A DNA stretch of 27,727 bases, taken from a virus. Taxonomy: Duplodnaviria; Caudoviricetes. Below the pieces are notes generated by a model, which made no database searches, was not told the origin of the DNA, and saw only the letters and a program-made list of their open reading frames with translations. Shown here one piece after another: positions 3,051-16,708 of this stretch. Position 1 is the first letter of the stretch. Each line of letters begins with the position of its first letter. The position numbers and the translations under genes are program-made. Location of the stretch: positions 1-27,727 of IMG/VR virus record IMGVR_UViG_3300037424_001102. The stretch is one strand, 5' to 3'.

Positions 3051-3127
3051 AGAAGTTCTCCTCTTGTTGTGTCACTAAAAGTGACAAAGTGGATAGGAGG
3101 ATCGAAACACCCCCTATCCTAATAGAC

Positions 3128-4954: not shown

Positions 4955-6213
4955 AATATCCTCTCATTGGTTTTTTTCCCCAGCCATAGGATTAGACTTA
5001 GATGAATGTACATCTACAAAAAACGATAGAAGTAATCCCAAAGATAATATCCTTGAGTATTACCCCATATTGAAAGGGTTAAAGGTGGTGAGATATCAAC
5101 AAGGCTGAAATGCCTTTCCATCCCACCACCCCCATAACAGGAGGAGGAGAACCATAAAGGGCATAATGTGAAAGCTTATCTCAGTATCTAGCCCGGTTAA
5201 ACCCCTTGATAGTCAAGGAAAACACACAACACGTGGTATGAAACACCACACACTAGTCATAGAAAGTACGTAGAAAGTGGGTTTTTTGGGGGGCCTCGCA
5301 CGACCATATAAATCTCTTGTTGTTTTTGTTTCCTGGGATGATGATCTTTTTATCCAACACCCAATGGCATTTGGATAGCTCCTATGTCCACGCAGGAAGC
5401 GCCCGCTCACCCATGCATTAAGATTATACGTGTGGATAACCCAAATGTGTTTCCCACAACCAACCTTAACACCCTTGTTGATCAGGTTTGTGCTGGATGC
5501 CCGTAGCATGTTGAGTTGTAAGTGGATGTGTCCTGTGTCCGTAAGGGCTGGACACTTAGTTGGATAGTCTCTTACCCAATTTAACTTCCTGGCCTTGGCA
5601 TTGCAGCCAAGGGATTATCCTTCTAGGTAGCACTGCCATTTGAAGGGTTGTTCAGTCATCTAGTATCCAAGTGATGTCAGTGGGAAGTTTCCCAACTGAT
5701 CAGCTTTACTTAGATACACTTGCCCTGTATCCCTGTGACCGCTATGAAGCCAGCCCTATAAGGGGGGAGGTTTTCCGCCAGCCATGAGTGCCACTTTCCC
5801 CATTGCGGGTATCGCAGCCTTTTTATGTTATCCGTCTCATGCGGTACGGTGTGCCACAATTTTTGCGCTCTGTTTCCGGGTAGCGTTCCCGGCCGGGCAT
5901 TCAATGTAGTCCCTTATCCCGACTTGGGCAATGCAACTCAGCAGTACCAACTTCCTTACCACAACAGCGCATTACCCGTAACCATAATGCCATAGGTAGG
6001 GGCTCAAATCAATAGTGTTAGTTAACATCACAAATACTTGAAAACACTCACTATTACTTGACCTCCAAAGTAATTCACCTGAAGGCTTTCACCATTCAAT
6101 GTTCGTCCTCACCAGGATCGAAACATCACCTATCGCGATAGGGCGTTTTTTATCCAGCCTCACTGAACTCGTCGTGGCTTTTGTTTTCCCCCAAGTTGTC
6201 TTCTTCCCCAGTG

Positions 6214-6572
6214 TGTGTGTATAATCTGGCGCGAAGAAGAAAACAAAAACGAGGATCTCTTACTGTGTGTAGATGTATCTTGATTATGTGTATATGGATA
6301 TGTATATGGATATGTGTAAAAGGATCTCTTACTGTATATATTGGATAGATACTTTACTGTATATATTGGATATGTGTAAAAGGATCTCTTACTGTATATA
6401 TTGGATAGATACTTTACTGTATATATTGGATATGTGTAAATGGCATTTGGATAGCTCCTATGTCCACGATTTGGATAGCTCCTTGGATAGCTCCTTGGAT
6501 AGCTCCTTGGATAGCTCCTATGTCTCAGCGTGTGTATAATCTGGCGCGAAGAAGAAAACAAAAACGAGGATC
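6214..6572. repeat. composite repeat block
   Basis: ~43-bp direct repeat GTGTGTATAATCTGGCGCGAAGAAGAAAACAAAAACGAGGATCT at ~6215 and ~6530. It brackets a 60-bp tandem duplication (~6308-6440) and TTGGATAGCTCC x5 (6447-6518). ATGGCATTTGGATAGCTCCTATGTCCACG recurs at ~5364-5392. Confidence 0.9.
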
Positions 6573-6819
6573 TATGCCTAGGATAATTTACTGTGTGTAT
6601 CAAAAACGAAACGTTGTCTATCCAATAAGCAAAAATTTGATTGAGCCTACTGGACTCTTCCTCTTTGTTTGTTTCTTCCCCCGTGCATTTGACCAAAGCA
6701 ATTGAGGATCGAAACACCCCTTATCGCGATGGGGGCTGGTCCCTCCTCCATGACAATCTTCCTCGTTGTTTGATTGGCCCTCCTCTTTGGGGTCCTCTTC
6801 TTCCCCCGCGTTGGCACGC

Positions 6820-8783: not shown

Positions 8784-8822
8784 AAAAGAGCCTATCCAGG
8801 TTTATTTGGATAGGCTCTCTTT
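8784..8822 (-). terminator. terminator closing the TIGR array transcript
   Basis: AGAGCCTATCCA-loop-TGGATAGGCTCT followed by TTT on the minus strand, directly after the last array unit. Confidence 0.75.
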
Positions 8823-8825
8823 GTA

Positions 8826-9551
8826 CAATCTCACGGTGGGTCACAAATTAAAGATGGTTTAGTTATCTTCAACATTCTCTATTTGGGGCACAATTTACCC
8901 GTGGTTTAGATATGTTCTTTACATCCTGGTTATGGGGAATGGCTACCATGGTTTAGAAAGTATCTAAAAACATTCTTCCAATGGTCCACAAGTGCGTGAT
9001 AATGGTTACTTCTTCAAAACAGTTCCAAATTGGGTCACAACTCAAACATGGTCTTATCTCAACACAGTGTTGGGTCACAATTTATATATGGTTTGATGCT
9101 TCCTTACAGATGCAGTGTGGGCCCCAATACCAATTTGGTTTTACCCTTTTGATTCCTTTACAAACCTGAGATGGGTCTTATTACAATTATGGTTTTACAG
9201 TCAATATCTGGATCTCATGTCATGGTTGGTTTGGAAAGTGTTTGCAATCTCTCGATTGGGACTCATACTTCATCTGGTGTGGGTATCTTTTACAGCGCTC
9301 GATCGGAACACATTCTTTGTCTGGTTTACTTCTTTTACAAACCCTGTTTGGTTTACAGTTACTTTCTGGTTTATAGGAAACTTAACAAACAGGAGATGGG
9401 TCTCATCACGATCTCGGTCTTTGGCTAGGTTAAGGCTAAGTCTAAGACAACGCTCGACACGGGACTCATTTCTTCACTGGCCTGATACTGGTTCTTGCTC
9501 TTTGCGTCCACGTGCTAGATAGTCGTCTTGTGGGTCGCATGCCTCCACTGG
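8826..9551 (-). ncRNA. TIGR-like dual-spacer guide RNA array, 15 units
   Basis: Plus-strand pattern CA-N9-TGGnnnnCA-N9-TGG repeated 15 times, e.g. CA atctcacgg TGGGTCACA aattaaaga TGG. On the minus strand this reads CCA-spacerA-TG(A/T)GACCCA-spacerB-TG. Confidence 0.85.
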
Positions 9552-9581
9552 AACTCAAAAAAACCTTGGCATGGTCACTGG

Positions 9582-9911
9582 TTAAATCTCAAACCGCTTC
9601 TTATCCCAGCCTGCCGCAGTCCCACCACATAGACGTGGTATCCTATCCTCCAGGTAGATTACCAAGGTTACGTTTTCCAGGTAATCCCATTTGATGTTTC
9701 TGACCATCTGGACAAAGTCATCGTCAATCAAATAGGAAGTTGACAGGCCCAAGACAACAGTCTCGCTGTTCTTGTTGCCGCCAAAACCGTCCTGTGCCGC
9801 AAACGCCTCCTCATGCCCCCTGGCAGTTAACCAGTTGTTCAGATCACGTGTGCGGCTTTCAATGTCCTCAGCAACGTCAAACGCAAGAACAAAGGTTGTT
9901 ACTTGACTCAT
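9582..9911 (-). CDS. hypothetical protein between the TIGR arrays
   Basis: 109 aa; RBS CAGGAGAG. Confidence 0.8.
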   Translation of the reverse strand: MSQVTTFVLAFDVAEDIESRTRDLNNWLTARGHEEAFAAQDGFGGNKNSETVVLGLSTSYLIDDDFVQMVRNIKWDYLENVTLVIYLEDRIPRLCGGTAAGWDKKRFEI

Positions 9912-9933
9912 CTATCTCTCCTGAAAGCTTTTG

Positions 9934-10099
9934 CACGTCCATGATGGGTCTCAAGTGGGAAATGGCAACATTTGGGTAAAACAATCGTGGTTAGGATCAC
10001 ATCCTTGGTCTGGTTTGGTGCTTCGGGTTCCCCATGGATCACAAAGCCAACGTGGTTCTTTTCTGAACATTACCATACTGGGGCACAGACGCCGCTTGG
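9934..10099 (-). ncRNA. TIGR-like array, 4 units
   Basis: Four units, all with 9+9 nt spacers, e.g. CA cgtccatga TGGGTCTCA agtgggaaa TGG. Confidence 0.85.
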
Positions 10100-10104
10100 T
10101 ATCT

Positions 10105-10359
10105 TTACACAAATTCCCACGGGACATCCTTAGAGGTTAAGTGATGTTTTCCTTCCTCAAATAATGTGCAAGTGTATTCAACATCACCAATCAGGAAAAC
10201 TTTCTGTGTTGTCTTGACCACAAGAAGCTCTTGGTTTCCAAGTAAAACAATGTCCCCTGATTTTGCAATGGCGTTTTCAGGCTTTACAAAGACAGATATC
10301 TTTGTTGTACTGCTTGGAATTAGTCTTTGTACCGGGGGATTCTCAATCATTTGTGCCAC
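10105..10359 (-). CDS. hypothetical protein
   Basis: 84 aa ORF co-oriented with the operon; start uncertain. Confidence 0.55.
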   Translation of the reverse strand: MAQMIENPPVQRLIPSSTTKISVFVKPENAIAKSGDIVLLGNQELLVVKTTQKVFLIGDVEYTCTLFEEGKHHLTSKDVPWEFV

Positions 10360-10422
10360 CCATAACGCCCTGATAAGGAACCATGTCGTTGTCGTTTGGT
10401 TGTGCGTTCGATTTGGCTGGGC

Positions 10423-10557
10423 CTAATGTCTCAGTGCAGCCCTACAGCGTACATGGAAGTGATCAAAACCCTGCGACGAAAAATCATAGATTGCTGCCCA
10501 CGACGAACCAACCTCATCTTCCTTGAAGTGTTTTCCGCAGTTGGAGCATTTATCCAT
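10423..10557 (-). CDS. small Cys/His (Zn-finger-like) protein (44 aa, not in the ORF track)
   Basis: Hand translation MDKCSNCGKHFKEDEVGSSWAAIYDFSSQGFDHFHVRCRAALRH; CxxC...HxxC. Confidence 0.55.
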   Translation of the reverse strand: MDKCSNCGKHFKEDEVGSSWAAIYDFSSQGFDHFHVRCRAALRH

Positions 10558-10568
10558 TTTTATAACCC

Positions 10569-10751
10569 CTACCAAACAGGAACGCTTGAGTCCCATTCAT
10601 CTGACAACTTCTTTGCATTCTTTTTTCTTTTGTTGTTCTCTACATATTCCATAAGGGCATTTCCAATGATGCTGGCCTCTTCAATTGACAGCAAGACTAT
10701 TACGTCTTTGGTCGGCACATCCTTACCATTAAAAAGTTGTCCGCTTTTCAT
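10569..10751 (-). CDS. hypothetical protein
   Basis: 60 aa; ATGA overlap with the upstream gene. Confidence 0.7.
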   Translation of the reverse strand: MKSGQLFNGKDVPTKDVIVLLSIEEASIIGNALMEYVENNKRKKNAKKLSDEWDSSVPVW

Positions 10752-10978
10752 CTTAGCTTCCTTTGTGTGACAGTTAACCCAGAATCCTTATCCATCCTCA
10801 CCTTTACTGCATACTGATTGCCAATCAGAAAAACAACTTCATTATCTCTCATCTGGATAATTGGTGCCGGGACTTCAGAAAGTGGAATTTCTTGTTGGAC
10901 TACAGAAAGTGGAATTTCTTGTTTGGTGTAGTTTGACACCAGTTTTCCAGAAACACTATCTTCAGGTTTGGTGGCCAT
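10748..10978 (-). CDS. hypothetical protein with a short internal duplication (QEIPLS x2)
   Basis: 76 aa; CAAGAAATTCCACTTTCTG occurs twice. Confidence 0.65.
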   Translation of the reverse strand: MATKPEDSVSGKLVSNYTKQEIPLSVVQQEIPLSEVPAPIIQMRDNEVVFLIGNQYAVKVRMDKDSGLTVTQRKLR

Positions 10979-11001
10979 GTTGTTTTACATCCCATATGAA
11001 G

Positions 11002-11033
11002 CAAGCGCCTAGTGGGTAACAGGTTATTCCTGG
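11002..11033 (-). ncRNA. solitary TIGR-like unit
   Basis: CA agcgcctag TGGGTAACA ggttattcc TGG (9+9). Confidence 0.7.
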
Positions 11034-11074
11034 CAAACACAGACTAAAAGTTGGCTTCAGGATAATATTAACTT

Positions 11075-11263
11075 TTAGTTTTCTGTTTTGAGTTTGACTT
11101 CCTCAAAAAGGTTGTCCCTTAGAAGTGTTGCCGCACGCTTCAGATTGGAGTACTCTTTAATCATTATGCCACAGTTTTCTCCTGGAAGGATGTCATGAAT
11201 GATGTCACAGATGGTCCTTAGCTTCTGGAGATTGGTTGCCTTGATATATTCTAATTCATTCAT
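11075..11263 (-). CDS. hypothetical protein
   Basis: 62 aa; RBS ACAGGAG. Confidence 0.75.
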   Translation of the reverse strand: MNELEYIKATNLQKLRTICDIIHDILPGENCGIMIKEYSNLKRAATLLRDNLFEEVKLKTEN

Positions 11264-11278
11264 TTGTCATTCTCCTGT

Positions 11279-11350
11279 CACGGCTGGTTTGGAGCTCAAT
11301 CAGGCTACTGGAAATCTAACACGTTTCTTGTGGATCACAGTCTTTGGTGG
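11279..11350 (-). ncRNA. two TIGR-like units
   Basis: CA cggctggtt TGGAGCTCA atcaggctac TGG and CA cgtttcttg TGGATCACA gtctttgg TGG. Confidence 0.7.
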
Positions 11351-11516
11351 TTACTTCTGTACATTCATCCAGTTCAAATTTCCTAATGTGACCACCAATG
11401 CCATTAAAAAGTCCAAGTTGCCACGTGGGCCTTGCCTTTCTAATAAGAAGGACTTTGTCTGGCTTCCTTCCATTAAAGGCAACGCCGGCAACGTAGCTGT
11501 TTTCCATGTCTGGCAT
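11316..11516 (-). pseudogene. truncated Nudix-hydrolase-like gene
   Basis: VLLIRKARPTWQLGLFNGIGGHI resembles a Nudix N-terminus; the REXXEE half of the Nudix box is missing and the ORF runs into a TIGR unit. Confidence 0.55.
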
Positions 11517-11531
11517 TTTGTCACCTTTGTC

Positions 11532-11766
11532 TTAGCCTGAGAAGGAGTTGATTATCCCACTTTCAAGGAGTTTGCACAGTGTGCAGCTTTCATCCAGCCA
11601 AACATCGTGGGCTGTTTTTTCAATCGGTGAGTATTTGTGGCTGTTAGATATCAACGAGTTTTCCCTGATCATAGCCCTTGCTTTATTCTCATCACCAGCA
11701 ATAACAATGTGCCCCCCATGGCATTGTTTCTGGATCAAACTTATACTTTTCAATGGCCGTGTTCAT
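11532..11766 (-). pseudogene. hypothetical gene, probably frameshifted in a G run (~11712-11717)
   Basis: Frame MNTAIEKYKFDPETMPWG overlaps frame GGHIVIAGDENKARAMIREN at the homopolymer. Confidence 0.4.
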
Positions 11767-11767
11767 A

Positions 11768-12187
11768 TCATGGATGATTATTTGACAGGCACCCATTGCA
11801 ACCCCTTGAGAGCCACCCCCCCCTGTTATATGCAGCCATGGCATAGGGGGTATATTCATCATGGTAAAGGTCCAGGGCAAATGGGCCACTGTTAAACGTT
11901 TTACCATTGTCGATGTCAGCAGCAAGGAGTGGGTATTCCTTCCTGCACGCACCTGCGTAGGCCAACACAGCGGCTTGCACGGCGAGTGTGATTGAACCAT
12001 CTTCACTTTTTTCTAAGACAAAGTAGGAACAATCACAGTGTTTTTGTCCTTCTTTGTCTCGACCATCTATGCGCGTCACCACCACATTCTTACCGTTTGA
12101 GGTAAGGCCGTTTGCATACATGTGGTCATCCGCATCCTTGAAATCAAATTTTGGGTACAGCCCACGTGTTTTGTCACCCATGACCAT
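11768..12187 (-). CDS. hypothetical phage protein
   Basis: Start moved to MVMGDK, downstream of GAAAAGAAGGA. Confidence 0.7.
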   Translation of the reverse strand: MVMGDKTRGLYPKFDFKDADDHMYANGLTSNGKNVVVTRIDGRDKEGQKHCDCSYFVLEKSEDGSITLAVQAAVLAYAGACRKEYPLLAADIDNGKTFNSGPFALDLYHDEYTPYAMAAYNRGGWLSRGCNGCLSNNHP

Positions 12188-12422
12188 TTTCCTTCTTTTC
12201 ACTTGTTGTTTTGCTATGTTGTGAGAACATTTTGCCCATGTCAGGGCAATGATACGAAAGCAGATAGCCAAGGTGGATTATATCTTTCTCGGTTGGGACC
12301 AGGTAATAATCCTCGTCGAGGTCCATCATCTTTACAGTTTTGCTTTGGCAGGCGGCAAGCATCGCCCATGTTCTTTGCCAGAACATAAACTCATCAAGTC
12401 CTTGGCGTCTGCCTCGTGTCAT
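12174..12422 (-). CDS. hypothetical protein coupled to the TasA-like gene
   Basis: 82 aa; ATGA overlap with the 12419 stop. Confidence 0.6.
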   Translation of the reverse strand: MTRGRRQGLDEFMFWQRTWAMLAACQSKTVKMMDLDEDYYLVPTEKDIIHLGYLLSYHCPDMGKMFSQHSKTTSEKKENGHG

Positions 12423-13327
12423 GCCGCCTTGTCCATGGAATTTGTGATGAATTCAGGGAGAGTGCTGGAACGACGGTCTTCAGTCCACTCTTCCCAGATC
12501 CTCTCAAGGAATTTCTTTTCCATATAGCGTTTGGCCCTACTGTGAATGTGCCCTTCGCTTCGTGCAAGCTCTCCAGTCTTTTTGGAAACCCAAATTCCGC
12601 TACCCTTTTTCGATTCTTTCATTTGGGCAGCTGGCAAAACAACCATTCCAAGGTCCTTTGCAGCCTCGATTTCGTACTTTTTGCGCCACGAATACAGGCG
12701 GTACCACATGCTGTCGGGTGCCTTACCGGCCTTTATGAGGCTGTCGCCCATTTGAAAGGCCACTGAGCGGCGGTATTGGCTGTAGCCTAGTGCCTTGCCC
12801 TTGACGGGCTTCGGGGCCTTACCATCAACGACGGCCAGCCCAAAACGCTTCCAAAGCTTGGCTGGGGTGGTGTAGTCGGCCAAATCACGCCCGGCTTCGG
12901 CAATAATCTTGGCGAGCATGGGGGCACCAAAGCCGTGTTGGGCCTCAGCCCACTTCCAGATGGGGAGTGTTTGGGCAACCTTGCCCATCTGGCGGGCGAG
13001 TTGGTCTTGCTTTTGTTTGGTGCTTTTGGAGATGATGAAAAGATCTTCAGCGGCCTGAACGAAGAGAGGGTCCTCCTGGTCAACAATCAGCCGTTGGTAG
13101 CATTCCTTGACTTTGGCTTTGTCCAGGAACTCGCGGCCAGCGTTTTCACCACTGTCATCGTCACTGTTGGCCATACCCCTATCAGGCAAAAGGTTTTCGT
13201 ACCCAGTATAAATGCGGGCGCGTGATTTTAGCATGTTTGTCAGCGTGCCAGCCTCACGGATGGCGGTGCGGTGTTGCCTGCCAAGGCCGACGATGGTGCT
13301 GATTGCTTCTTTCTGTTGTTCATTCAT
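12419..13327 (-). CDS. tasA: TasA-like Nop-domain RNA-guided DNA-binding protein (IS110/IS116-related, no nuclease domain)
   Basis: Coiled coil followed by LPIWKWAEAQHGFGAPMLAKIIAEAG...YTTPAKLWKRFGLAV...GHIHSRAKRYMEKKFL, typical of the IS110 C-terminal/Nop fold. No DEDD RuvC or HNH motif. Flanked by dual-spacer arrays. Confidence 0.8.
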   Translation of the reverse strand: MNEQQKEAISTIVGLGRQHRTAIREAGTLTNMLKSRARIYTGYENLLPDRGMANSDDDSGENAGREFLDKAKVKECYQRLIVDQEDPLFVQAAEDLFIISKSTKQKQDQLARQMGKVAQTLPIWKWAEAQHGFGAPMLAKIIAEAGRDLADYTTPAKLWKRFGLAVVDGKAPKPVKGKALGYSQYRRSVAFQMGDSLIKAGKAPDSMWYRLYSWRKKYEIEAAKDLGMVVLPAAQMKESKKGSGIWVSKKTGELARSEGHIHSRAKRYMEKKFLERIWEEWTEDRRSSTLPEFITNSMDKAA

Positions 13328-13349
13328 AGCATCTTCTCCTGTTGTGTTG

Positions 13350-13465
13350 CACGTTCTTTTTGGTTCTCAACTCACTGATGGCTCGTCGTTGCACTCTGCC
13401 ACTGGATATCAGGGGCTTAATGGCACACCCTTACAATTCGCCGCGTGGATCTCAAGACTTCATGG
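13350..13465 (-). ncRNA. TIGR-like array, 3 units, in the leader of tasA
   Basis: Minus strand: CCA tgaagtct TGAGATCCA cgcggcgaat TG ... GCCA ttaagcccc TGATATCCA gtggcagag TG ... GCCA tcagtgagt TGAGAACCA aaaagaacg TG. Confidence 0.85.
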
Positions 13466-14042
13466 GCAAACATTTGCCCTCACCACAACCCGCGCCTTGC
13501 TTGTAAGCAAGTTTATACATCCTTCTAAGTGTTTTTATGGAAATTGCCTCACCGACTGTTTTGTTCTTGTGGAAGTAAAGCCTGTCTTTTACAGCACTTT
13601 CAAATCTAAATGCCTTGAGGTTGTTGGAAATGTTGGATCGCCGCTGTTTAGTGCTACGGTCAAGGTCTTCCCACCTGCAATCGCAGAGGTATTTCCCTAC
13701 TGTAGTTACCCAAAAGAACAAGGATGTTTTATGCGCCTCTTCAAAACGCTTGCCACCGCTGGCCCTATCGGCTTTCATTTTTTTGTAATCAGCAAGTTCG
13801 GTGTCATTGTCTGATTGCTGCCCTTGGTGGACAGCCTCTCGCTCGTTGTGGCGTAGGGTGCCGAGGTATGTTTGGCACATTAAACGTAGTGTGGGTCCAT
13901 CGTCTAATATGCTGCTCCATATTTCGGGGCTGGTATGCATTGTGGCAACGATATTTGTTACGGCAACATTTTTGCCGTCTGCGGAGTATTCCCCACGGTG
14001 CTTGGAATGCACTTCACTTGCGACTTCTCTGAAGGTTTTCAT
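13452..14042 (-). CDS. hypothetical protein, candidate Tas partner
   Basis: 196 aa directly upstream of tasA, bracketed by TIGR-like units. Confidence 0.75.
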   Translation of the reverse strand: MKTFREVASEVHSKHRGEYSADGKNVAVTNIVATMHTSPEIWSSILDDGPTLRLMCQTYLGTLRHNEREAVHQGQQSDNDTELADYKKMKADRASGGKRFEEAHKTSLFFWVTTVGKYLCDCRWEDLDRSTKQRRSNISNNLKAFRFESAVKDRLYFHKNKTVGEAISIKTLRRMYKLAYKQGAGCGEGKCLPMKS

Positions 14043-14061
14043 GTTGCACTCGTGCTGGTGG

Positions 14062-14095
14062 CAGTGTTGACCTGGGACGCATCACGGGGATCAGG
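14062..14095 (-). ncRNA. degenerate solitary TIGR-like unit
   Basis: CA gtgttgacc TGGGACGCA tcacggggatc AGG (9+11). Confidence 0.45.
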
Positions 14096-14156
14096 GCCAC
14101 TTGGTCAATCATATATACGTTTTACCACTCAGGATAGATCCTTAGTTGAGCACCAT

Positions 14157-14456
14157 TTACCTTTTAAGGAGTGTTTGAATATTTTTTCTTATATAAGTGG
14201 TTAGGTCTGCATTTGTGTATGACACTGCCAGTGTACCTGCCTCTCGTTTGCAGGAAGTTATGACTTTTCTGCACCTTGTCTTCTTGTTGTCTAGCCAAGT
14301 CCGTGTTATGTGGTCATCAAAACCTTTTAGATACCTAGCTGCGGTTCTTCTTGCAGAGCCCTCTGTTTCTGCAAGAATGGCAAATGACTTTGGTAACAAT
14401 TGCCATTCATCAGTGCTCGGTGGTCTATCTAACAGTGCTAAAATGTAAACGTTCAT
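14157..14456 (-). CDS. hypothetical protein
   Basis: Start moved to MNVYILALL, overlapping the end of the NADAR gene. Confidence 0.65.
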   Translation of the reverse strand: MNVYILALLDRPPSTDEWQLLPKSFAILAETEGSARRTAARYLKGFDDHITRTWLDNKKTRCRKVITSCKREAGTLAVSYTNADLTTYIRKNIQTLLKR

Positions 14457-14934
14457 CTTTTGTCTTTTCCAGCTCTTCCAGAATGAGACCTTCCCTAACA
14501 TACATAAGAATTTTTCCAAGATTGTTGTGCTTCCTTTTTTTTTCACATTTGGGGCAGGAGCAAGCCCCCCAGAAATTGTCATGCCACCAATTCCCCTCAA
14601 TGAGAGTTTCATTTCCTGTTCCAATTAACCACTGCTTAAGATTTTCATCCTTATATTTTTTTATCTCAAGGATGGTCATTACCCTAATCCTGATTATTCC
14701 CCAATTTTTTCTAATGGTGACTTGCTGGCCAAGGTTCTTTGCTTTTTGTGGTGTGGACGTCAGTGCCACTTTTCTCCTCATCCCAGGGGAGAGAGTCTTG
14801 GCTGCTTGATAGGCGTGTTCAACAGAAGGGTATGATATCCCTTCCATTTTTACGGTGCAAGGGTAGAAATTACTAAGAAATTCAAATGAGCCCCTAAAAC
14901 TGTCAATCATTTTATCCGTCTTTTCTCTTGACAT
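14425..14934 (-). CDS. NADAR (YbiA-like) family protein
   Basis: FLSNFY, YPSVEHAYQAAK, LIGTGNETLIEGNWWHDNFWG and NNLGKILM motifs; start at 14934 or 14910. Confidence 0.9.
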   Translation of the reverse strand: MSREKTDKMIDSFRGSFEFLSNFYPCTVKMEGISYPSVEHAYQAAKTLSPGMRRKVALTSTPQKAKNLGQQVTIRKNWGIIRIRVMTILEIKKYKDENLKQWLIGTGNETLIEGNWWHDNFWGACSCPKCEKKRKHNNLGKILMYVREGLILEELEKTKDERLHFSTVR

Positions 14935-15208: not shown

Positions 15209-16491
15209 TTGACATCCTCCCCACGGATAAATCCGGGGGATTCCGAACCCTCGCGAGTCCGGTTGCTGCCCTGAGTCGCCTTACTGCGCGTGCTCATATC
15301 TGACAGCCGTGATTTCCGCCAGCCCGGCGGTATTGATATTGATTCCTGCGTTGATGTCGCGGTCATGGACTGCTCCACATTCCGAGCACATCCACTCCCT
15401 GACGTTCAACGCCTTCTTGCCGTCTCGATGCCCGCAGGCCGAACAAATCTGACTGCTCGGATACCACCGGCTGATTTTGACGAAAGTCCGCCCATGCCAT
15501 GCGGCTTTGTACTCAAGCTGGCGTGTGAATTCGCTCCAGCTCGCGTCTGCAATTGACTTCGCCAGGCAATGGTTTTTCTGCAATCCCGCCACATTCAAAT
15601 CCTCGACCGATACCGTTTGGTTTTCACGGATGATGCGAGTCGAAAGTTTGTGCAGAAAATCATTGCGCGTATCTGCAATTCTGGCGTGGTGCCGCGCAAC
15701 CTTCACCCTCGCCTTGTTCCGGTTCTTGCTCCCTTTCTGTTTGCGGGCGTGCCGCCGCTGTAGTTGCGCCAAGCGCACTTCGTGCTTCCGGTAAATCTTC
15801 GGTGCCTCGATCTTCTCGCCGTCGCTGGTGGCGATGAAGCTGTTCAAGCCAAGGTCGATGCCGATGGCCTTGTCGTTCACTGGCAGTAATTCCTTGTCGG
15901 CCTCGCCCTGGAACGCCACGAAGTACCGGCAGGCCGTGTCCTTGCTGATCGTGATGCTGGTGATCTTGTCCGGCAGCGAACGCGACTCGATGAAGCGCAG
16001 CGGCTCATTTGACTTGGCGATGTACAGCGCGCCGTCCTTTAACCGGAAGGCGTTCGACATGAGCCGGATCGACTGCTTGCCATGCTTCGACTTGAAGCTC
16101 GGGTATTTGGCGCGCTTGGCGAAGAAGTTGCTGAACGCCTTGTCCTGGTTGCGCAGCGCCTGCTGCAAGGCAACGTTCGACACGTCGTAGAGCCACGCGA
16201 GTTCAGGCGCTTGCTTCATCTCGGTCATGCGTGCAGCCGATTTCACGTAGCCAATCTTTGTGCCGTTGAGCGTGTATTCCTTGCTGCGCCAGTCGAGGAT
16301 TGCGTTCCAGACATACCGCGCGCTACCGAACGTCCGAGCAAGCAGCTTCGCTTGGTCATCGGTAGGGTAGGCGCGGTATTTGTGCGAGCAGTGTTCCATG
16401 AGCAAGAGATTACAAAATGCTTGGTGATTTGTCAACATTAACTTCCCGCCTTACCCCATAGCTGAAGCTAGGGGTTTGCGGCGGATATTTG
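15209..16491 (-). mobile_element. IS200/IS605-family element, tnpB only (IS1341-like)
   Basis: Left-end hairpin ~16446-16484 preceded by (C)TGAT; right-end hairpin 15216-15244 ending in TCAA; visibly higher GC than its flanks; no tnpA. Confidence 0.85.
15281..16399 (-). CDS. tnpB: RNA-guided endonuclease TnpB
   Basis: KYRAYPT HTH; RuvC motifs GIDLG, VEDL and DRDINA intact; CSAC...CSEC Zn finger. Confidence 0.95.
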   Translation of the reverse strand: MEHCSHKYRAYPTDDQAKLLARTFGSARYVWNAILDWRSKEYTLNGTKIGYVKSAARMTEMKQAPELAWLYDVSNVALQQALRNQDKAFSNFFAKRAKYPSFKSKHGKQSIRLMSNAFRLKDGALYIAKSNEPLRFIESRSLPDKITSITISKDTACRYFVAFQGEADKELLPVNDKAIGIDLGLNSFIATSDGEKIEAPKIYRKHEVRLAQLQRRHARKQKGSKNRNKARVKVARHHARIADTRNDFLHKLSTRIIRENQTVSVEDLNVAGLQKNHCLAKSIADASWSEFTRQLEYKAAWHGRTFVKISRWYPSSQICSACGHRDGKKALNVREWMCSECGAVHDRDINAGININTAGLAEITAVRYEHAQ

Positions 16492-16708
16492 ATCAGCCGT
16501 GGGTCTTTGCTGCCTGTTTTCCATGTGTGTATTGTTCCTGGGTGTATTCCACCGTTTTCACAAACTTTTTGTAGGCAAGAAAACATGCCGGGTACTTGTT
16601 CTTTATTAGCAGTGCAATTCCTTTCTCCATCACACCGACGCAGTTGACGGTGTTTACAATTGCGTCTGTTTTCTGATTAAGTATGCTTCCTGAAATTATA
16701 CTGAACAT
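16492..16708 (-). pseudogene. macro-domain (Appr-1-p/DarG-like) gene, frameshifted and interrupted by the IS
   Basis: DAIVNTVNCVGVMEKGIA motif; after the A run the alternative frame gives KVCENGGIHPGTIHTWKTGSKDPRLI up to the IS left end. Confidence 0.75.

Follow-up and report, generated by a model that had tools for sequence, protein, structure and literature searches.

How are guide RNAs produced when their units lie scattered among protein-coding genes? This question is raised by the TIGR-TasA locus of a 27.7-kb phage contig (IMG/VR record IMGVR_UViG_3300037424_001102; 27,727 nt, the whole of which is hereafter called the window). The effector gene tasA is separated from a main array of guide units by ten small open reading frames (ORFs), and five further clusters of units, here termed satellites, are spread between the protein genes, including the gap between tasA and a neighbouring gene that we call gene X (Table 1). 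All genes from ~19.8 kb down to the main array are on the minus strand, and capsid, head-tail and tail genes are found at 21–27 kb. The window sequence was carried by two sediment metagenome DNA runs and, among the runs listed, by no RNA dataset. With a probability of roughly 0.65, we consider that the satellites are transcribed in one long mRNA together with the protein genes, bound by TasA dimers and trimmed into guides that direct TasA binding, not cutting. Other loci used for comparison with the window are given L numbers.

Table 1. Coordinates of the tasA locus features in the window.
Feature	Position	Strand	Description
Degenerate unit	14062–14093	-	Box C reads TGA; 19 nt before the gene X start
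Gene X	13452–14042	-	196 aa, mostly helical; conserved partner of Y/H-less Tas proteins
Three units	13434–13465, 13392–13423, 13350–13381	-	Between gene X and tasA; two perfect, one with 8/10-nt spacers
tasA	12419–13327	-	302-aa solo Nop-domain TIGR effector with coiled-coil
Cargo block	9582–12422	-	Ten small co-oriented ORFs between tasA and the main array
Nudix fragment	11316–11516	-	Nudix hydrolase gene with the 5' half only; broken at the Nudix box, continuing into a unit
Two units	11320–11350, 11279–11311	-	Spacer A of 8 nt and 10 nt among them
Single perfect unit	11002–11033	-	Ends 23 nt short of the 76-aa ORF start
Four units	9934–10099	-	Two perfect, two with one anchor change
Main array	8826–9569	-	14 units; neighbours 37–63 nt apart, two longer gaps
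Intrinsic-terminator-like hairpin	8784–8821	-	15 bp with U tail, directly after the last unit; fold z -5.0

The units dispersed through this phage TasA locus are true TIGR dual-spacer units. The strict unit pattern, CCA-N9-TG-N4-CCA-N9-TG, matched the window 13 times, always on the minus strand between 8826 and 13423 (plus strand, 0), and no perfect match was found on either strand of the other 22 kb. On the minus strand of 9600–14200, five matches were perfect, eight retained at least 9 of the 10 anchors and 17 at least 8, compared with means of 0.008, 0.30 and 3.35, respectively, in 2000 dinucleotide shuffles. An earlier note on this DNA had placed five satellite clusters, all of which were recovered at the positions given, and had named matches no commoner than in shuffled sequence as one ground for refutation; with the exception of the 14062 unit, the units proved to be above chance. 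A relaxed pattern permitting spacers of 8–10 nt or one or two anchor changes yielded 11 satellite and 14 main-array units, which were chosen by hand with spacer lengths set by the analyst. The spacers were fully variable, as guides would be, and neighbouring units were 37–63 nt apart instead of at the fixed 36 nt seen in L079 and L164.

Further evidence came from the bases immediately before box C and after the last box D (positions -1/+1). These were Watson–Crick paired in 8 of the 11 satellites (four G-C, three A-T and one T-A; shuffle mean 3.5, p = 0.003) and in 19 of the 25 units overall (p = 0.0002), although both p-values are optimistic because the units were hand-picked and those of one locus are related. 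Pairing exceeded chance only at this first stem position and not at positions 2–4. Stem positions 1, 2 and 3 were paired in 12, 5 and 2 of the 13 perfect window units, and in 57, 52 and 36 of the 58 units in L023–L026 and L028. Such weak stems, particularly at the second position (5/13 in the window vs. 52/58 in L023–L028), could indicate that the satellites are decaying leftovers of an array broken by insertions and deletions, with only the terminal array in use; the 8- or 10-nt spacers in three satellites, the anchor changes in three and the Nudix gene broken off at a unit point the same way. However, five satellites are perfect, the closing pair covaries among satellites, the main array is equally irregular and the position of the gene X–tasA cluster is conserved across relatives, which makes general decay very unlikely.

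The effector itself was assigned from sequence and structure. The protein matched TaTasR 9MTY (phmmer, E 2.2e-07), and its model (pLDDT 90.9; helical N-terminus, no nuclease domain) gave ten top Foldseek rows that were all TasR/TasH, the only entries at E < 0.001 among the matches listed. Because it matches TasR/TasH and yet lacks a nuclease domain (no Pfam match to RuvC or HNH in its 302 aa), ORF 12419–13327 was identified as a TasA. A match to PHROG 4285 (‘transposase’) raised the possibility of an IS110 transposase, an identity rejected on account of the missing N-terminal DEDD/RuvC domain in the model and Pfam scan, fold matches to IS110 far weaker than those to Tas, and an array of many guides, not one bridge RNA. 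No Y and no H occur in the tail past the last helix. A quick tree was built from 67 Tas domains, after 14 of 81 rows had been set aside as short or partial. It placed the window TasA as sister to L023–L028 (SH-aLRT 100), within the Y/H-less clade; long-stemmed units are found in the other members of this clade.

The layout of the locus suggests how the units are transcribed. Between 14934 and 9582, every ORF has the same orientation as the units. Among the 13 junctions between the ORFs called in this interval, the five with units are 52–193 nt wide, whereas seven of the eight without units measure -188 to 15 nt and one measures 72 nt; units are thus present in five of the six gaps > 50 nt. The clusters begin 5–63 nt past a stop codon or overlap it and end 15–23 nt before a start codon. 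The ribosome-binding site (RBS) that follows is AGGAG in three cases, a weak GGGA in one and not recognisable in one. The earlier note had stated that several clusters end just before an RBS, and box D indeed lies 11, 2 and 9 nt from the AGGAG of the 9911 gene, the 11263 gene and tasA, respectively. From 17.3 kb down to 8.5 kb, the minus strand has no strong terminator other than the hairpin at 8821–8784. Given the co-orientation, the clusters 15–23 nt before start codons and the single strong terminator after the last unit, excision from a polycistronic mRNA appears likeliest, and one or a few polycistronic transcripts carrying genes and guides together would be the simplest reading. The anatomy therefore supports the polycistronic origin suggested by the earlier note, in that the genes are co-oriented and tightly spaced with one terminator, although co-transcription is what we infer from it and not what it demonstrates.

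The same layout might also have arisen if units had spread singly into existing operon gaps, or if each cluster had its own small promoter. Almost all gaps > 50 nt contain units, and the available text of Xu et al. 2026 (bioRxiv 10.64898/2026.09.09.750476) treats internal promoters as not excludable for internal guides. In contrast, the unit usually found directly after the tas stop is missing in the window, the accessible part of PMC12045711 gives no known mechanism of unit acquisition, and the short distance of the clusters from the upstream stop, or their overlap with it, leaves little non-coding room for promoters. Both possibilities are most improbable.

Several points weigh against excision from one long mRNA, in addition to the optimistic p-values. 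Off-length spacers or anchor changes beyond one base were found in 4 of the 11 satellites, so decay of some satellites is possible. The block contains two weak 5-bp sites that resemble terminators (10594–10579 and 10242–10230), and the promoter scan was at chance level and thus uninformative (12 found vs. 13.7 expected); several transcripts are therefore possible. The tree is only a quick version, no relative shares the cargo genes, so that gene gain or loss between units was not seen directly, and no target with < 3 mismatches was found in the 27.7-kb window.

Individual clusters fit into the operon closely. The unit at 14062, called degenerate in the earlier note, indeed retains 8 of 10 anchors without a closing pair; because chance yields approximately three such matches in 9600–14200, its position is what speaks for it, and units likewise precede the gene X orthologue in L024, L028, L036, L039 and L085. 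Overlap of units with protein genes, as the note had claimed, held for two units only: 13434–13465, which covers the last 14 nt of the gene X ORF 13452–14042 including its stop, and 11320–11350, which is contained in the last part of the truncated Nudix ORF 11316–11516. The cluster at 13350–13465 has the same position in L023–L026 and L028, and the box D of its unit 13350–13381 ends 9 nt before the tasA AGGAG (13340–13336). Unit 11279–11311 ends 2 nt before the AGGAG of the 62-aa ORF (11263 gene). The cluster at 9934–10099 fills its gap, starting 5 nt from the stop of the 81-aa ORF and ending 11 nt from the AGGAG of the 109-aa ORF; it is bridged by contigs of two studies, X1 and X2. A gap of 12 nt separates the 109-aa ORF stop from the main array. 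Contigs of the second study (X2) are identical to the window at 9820–10069, 11105–11299 and 14000–14169, and one X1 contig spans 8000–10087, X1 possibly being the source sample of the window; no contig among those listed spans the Nudix/unit junction 11320–11350 with 31 nt on both sides.

Additional unit-like sequences were also noted. A possible extra half-unit lies directly upstream of unit 11002–11033. The sole gap > 50 nt without a called unit, 10351–10422 (-), contains a pair of CCA motifs 17 nt apart that might be the remains of a unit. A candidate inside tasA (13066–13097, -; 9/10 anchors) was not called, as 0.3 such matches are expected by chance; relatives carry intragenic units in the 5' part of tas.

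Since the clusters end so near to start codons, the satellites could mainly be mRNA operators: apo-TasA on the last unit before an RBS would block or uncouple translation of tasA, gene X and the cargo, in a feedback matching protein to guide supply. All five clusters end within 15–23 nt of a start codon, one of them 2 nt before AGGAG, and the ATG of tasA lies 22 nt from the unit in the window and 19–22 nt from it in L023, L024, L025 and L028. A distance of 19–22 nt from the start codon is approximately the edge of the ribosome footprint. A link between guide maturation and Tas translation has been considered for intragenic guides (available text of Xu et al. 2026, bioRxiv 10.64898/2026.09.09.750476). 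However, the short distances follow from packing alone, because in a packed operon an RBS will lie close to the end of whatever intergenic element is present. The one-bp stem excludes the Shine–Dalgarno (SD) sequence, the segments from unit to RBS fold no better than shuffles, and the fully variable spacers show no enrichment of anti-SD words. Moreover, the distance from unit to tas start is 27–613 nt in 14 other relatives, covering most of the longer-stemmed ones, and 85 nt in L026. The autoregulation of tasA and its neighbours suggested in the earlier note thus gained no direct support, and even with 19–22 nt in the window and four of the five closest relatives tested, a primarily regulatory role is unlikely.

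If the guides are instead cut from the operon mRNA, a processing step is needed, although TasA lacks the known self-processing residues, and gene X offers a specific candidate for that step or for a missing effector step. Its orthologues adjoin tasA in L024, L026 and L028 (pairwise E 7e-18, 2e-12 and 4e-07), and in the closest relatives the orthologue is a 165–175-aa gene upstream of tasA. A profile search detected gene X at 27 of 43 Y/H-less tas loci (window included) and at 0 of 24 Y/H loci, an association that may reflect a single gain, given that the loci are related and many of the contigs short. The gene is usually upstream of tas and downstream in L031 and L039; it is missing at four actinophage-like Y/H-less loci (L016 and L232–L234) and is therefore not required by all Y/H-less systems. 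The family comprises 2,786 protein clusters at 50% identity. Searching cultured phages with one member by tblastn gave no match, though the profile later found one in the cultured Rhizobium phage RHph_X2_25, and a search of viral contigs gave no match. There was no significant Pfam, PHROG or PDB match, and ParB was not matched in Pfam, PHROG or fold searches. The model is helical (pLDDT 85.4, pTM 0.52); fold searches returned nothing significant (Foldseek against PDB and viral structures; VIA, best Z 5.1; Atlas, top score 0.76), which does not show a new fold. A predicted TasA–gene X complex scored 0.00, providing no evidence either way.

Because gene X was found where the Y/H loop is absent and never with the loop, it might be a maturation factor or co-effector of Y/H-less TIGR, enabling nearly stemless guides to be cut from phage mRNA, with their release splitting the operon message into gene-sized pieces and setting cargo expression. 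This scenario as a whole is distinctly unlikely. The main texts of PMC12045711, bioRxiv 10.64898/2026.09.09.750476, bioRxiv 10.64898/2026.08.11.744272 and PMC13421893, as far as they are accessible, do not name such a partner.

The history of the locus can be approached through the cargo block. Its ORFs encode 82, 139, 73, 66, 62, 76, 60, 57, 81 and 109 aa. The 139-aa ORF matches phrog_9572 and phage BcepF1; no homologue of the ten was found in loci L001–L216 at E 0.01, and none at all was found for the 109-aa and 81-aa ORFs. As most are singletons, their coding status is judged from RBS, packing and gene calls only. The Nudix fragment matches phage Nudix/MutT genes (tblastn, E 5e-5 to 2e-4), and no match to the 3' half was found within the window. 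An intact 165-aa Nudix gene lies between units at L137, a distant TasR locus (L137:8083–8580, -), and L218, a close relative of L137, has a Nudix gene near tasR. Nudix as a regular TIGR partner was considered and rejected: among 13 other Nudix loci, only L218 had tas.

In 15 of 20 relatives (two of them near-duplicates), a unit begins -52 to +16 nt from the tas stop, whereas in the window the first unit lies 1,068 nt past it, with four ORFs between. The missing unit at the tas stop and the ten ORFs before the main array favour insertion of cargo into an older array. We favour entry of the cargo genes into an older downstream array, followed by a deletion at one unit (Nudix), a step not observed directly. 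The earlier note had offered cargo insertion as an alternative to the polycistronic origin; the insertion is supported, but the two are compatible. On whether genes come and go between units, a question raised in that note, L035 (66 aa) and L137 (the 165-aa Nudix gene) each hold a single unrelated gene tightly flanked by units, whereas the window cargo is found in no relative. Among 80 other tas loci, 38 had at least two detected units and six had another ORF between units, convincingly so only L035 and L137. The window is the most dispersed case among the tas loci compared, most relatives' contigs being short. In the closest relatives, units run from gene stop codons to the next RBS around the gene X orthologue and tasA.

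Other arrangements were observed among the comparison loci. L023:17–296 and L024:788–1239 are arrays with a 35-nt period whose 3-nt linkers alternate between TGA and TCA, so that one linker doubles as 3' stem arm of the unit before it and 5' arm of the unit after it; within the Y/H-less clade, this arrangement resembles a dual-repeat array. Runs of at least five units lie inside tas reading frames (L124:5005–6195 and L038:1378–2610), and in Mycobacterium phage Rich units are inside a neighbouring gene (L234:2958–3638). A motif scan of viral contigs returned 129 loci, including three contigs with a tas gene; most of the others had periods that are multiples of 18 nt, typical of coding repeats.

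Based on these features, the following course of events may be proposed. The ancestral order would have been units–gene X–units–tasA–units. The downstream array would later have been entered at several points by small cargo genes, with each RBS beside the preceding unit, as the phage would tolerate little spare intergenic DNA. The units would be transcribed inside a long operon mRNA, where TasA dimers might bind their box C/D motifs. Because TasA lacks the known self-processing residues, the protected units would presumably be trimmed by a host RNase, possibly aided by gene X. The resulting ribonucleoproteins (RNPs) could bind 18-bp DNA targets and block transcription, as published for MbTasA, with repression of foreign or related DNA as the probable outcome, judging from published TasA assays. 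Targets, defined as spacer A plus the reverse complement of spacer B, were searched for in the systems' own loci only. An apparent excess of self-matches over 213 units of 21 loci was due to units matching themselves and largely disappeared once the unit was masked; at ≤ 4 mismatches, 55/213 masked units matched compared with 211/1065 in shuffles, which is no clear excess. Spacer B of unit 9386–9417 is exactly complementary to the tasA RBS (13331–13343, -), with four bases of spacer A in addition, and was rejected for its wrong order and chance-level match.

Elsewhere in the window, an IS605-type TnpB gene lies upstream of the tasA locus (15281–16438, -), a second RNA-guided protein in the block, adjoined by NADAR and macrodomain-like genes (14425–14934 and 16493–16708, -). 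Related intergenic hairpins between small minus-strand genes (716–748, 1196–1228, 1761–1793, 2206–2235 and 2709–2741) are likely gene-cassette terminators. Three copies of a 30-nt element (3098–3127, 6114–6143 and 6705–6734) and a non-coding region (6215–6599) that contains direct repeats of 60, 44 and 12 nt are promoter- or origin-like.

With box C/D and one base pair as the only signal, the window offers a clean test of Y/H-less maturation; according to the available text of bioRxiv 10.64898/2026.09.09.750476, Y/H-less guide maturation and guide origin from tas-containing mRNA are stated open questions. If satellite guides load, any mRNA gap of ~35 nt could host a guide, and array finders requiring repeats or stems would miss such guides; this would also bear on multiplexed guide design. 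No paper was found that describes guides spread among unrelated cargo genes or gene X, and published supplements could show such loci.

Compared with known systems, what is seen here is a variation on published themes, cited from the portions of these papers available. Faure et al. 2025 (PMC12045711) described arrays on both sides of tas, with three PlTasA subarrays all processed, and arrays between tasParB and tasA, drew the snoRNA parallel and reported an extra edge pair beside the box C/D pair in the TasR structure, to which the -1/+1 pair of the window units corresponds. In Xu et al. 2026 (bioRxiv 10.64898/2026.09.09.750476), tigRNAs were sequenced from inside the BltasA coding sequence, with precursor processing and internal promoters discussed, MbTasA RNPs blocked transcription at DNA targets, an extended locus improved BlTasA guide processing, a CUU motif marked the processing boundary in the stem-loop class, and a form with a 35-nt period and overlapping short stems was mentioned. 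The polycistronic, snoRNA-like idea of the earlier note is thus plausible but was largely anticipated by both publications. Guide processing in dual-repeat systems is carried out by the Y/H dyad, which stem-loop clades lack (bioRxiv 10.64898/2026.09.09.750476; PMC13421893).

The window locus shows a Nop-domain Tas, dual units with ~9-nt spacers on the tas strand, a covarying extra pair and an intrinsic terminator. As in the stem-loop systems PlTasA (PMC12045711) and BlTasA/MbTasA (bioRxiv 10.64898/2026.09.09.750476), the TasA is a solo Nop-domain protein that lacks the Y/H loop; the units have CCA/UG boxes, 9-nt spacers, a 9-nt loop and variable linkers, and the array is split into subarrays that lie on both sides of tas and overlap coding sequence. 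A Y/H-less Tas and grouping with that clade were found, but no palindromic stem closing the units; in contrast to that class, the units lack a real stem (a single pair in addition to the box C/D pair), the five satellite clusters extend over 4.2 kb, tasA and the main array are separated by ten unrelated ORFs, and units flank a conserved, non-ParB partner gene. With the dual-repeat systems carrying tasParB (PMC12045711), it shares arrays on either side of tasA and an operon partner as well as in the gap between them, a minimal closing pair and a terminator after the array, and it differs from them in having no fixed 36-nt period, conserved edge repeat, Y/H dyad or ParB-matching partner. Box C/D snoRNAs are similar in their two-guide layout bound by a Nop-domain dimer and their likely release from longer RNA (predicted for the window), whereas the window has no K-turn/L7Ae or fibrillarin partner and the published Tas target is DNA. 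IS110 transposases with bridge RNA have in common a Nop-like RNA-binding domain. The window system is thus a member of the TIGR-TasA family that falls fully under neither class definition. Split, intergenic and intragenic TIGR arrays have already been published, and the window is an extreme variant of these; what it adds is a near-stemless, Y/H-less architecture together with an unnamed partner gene family.

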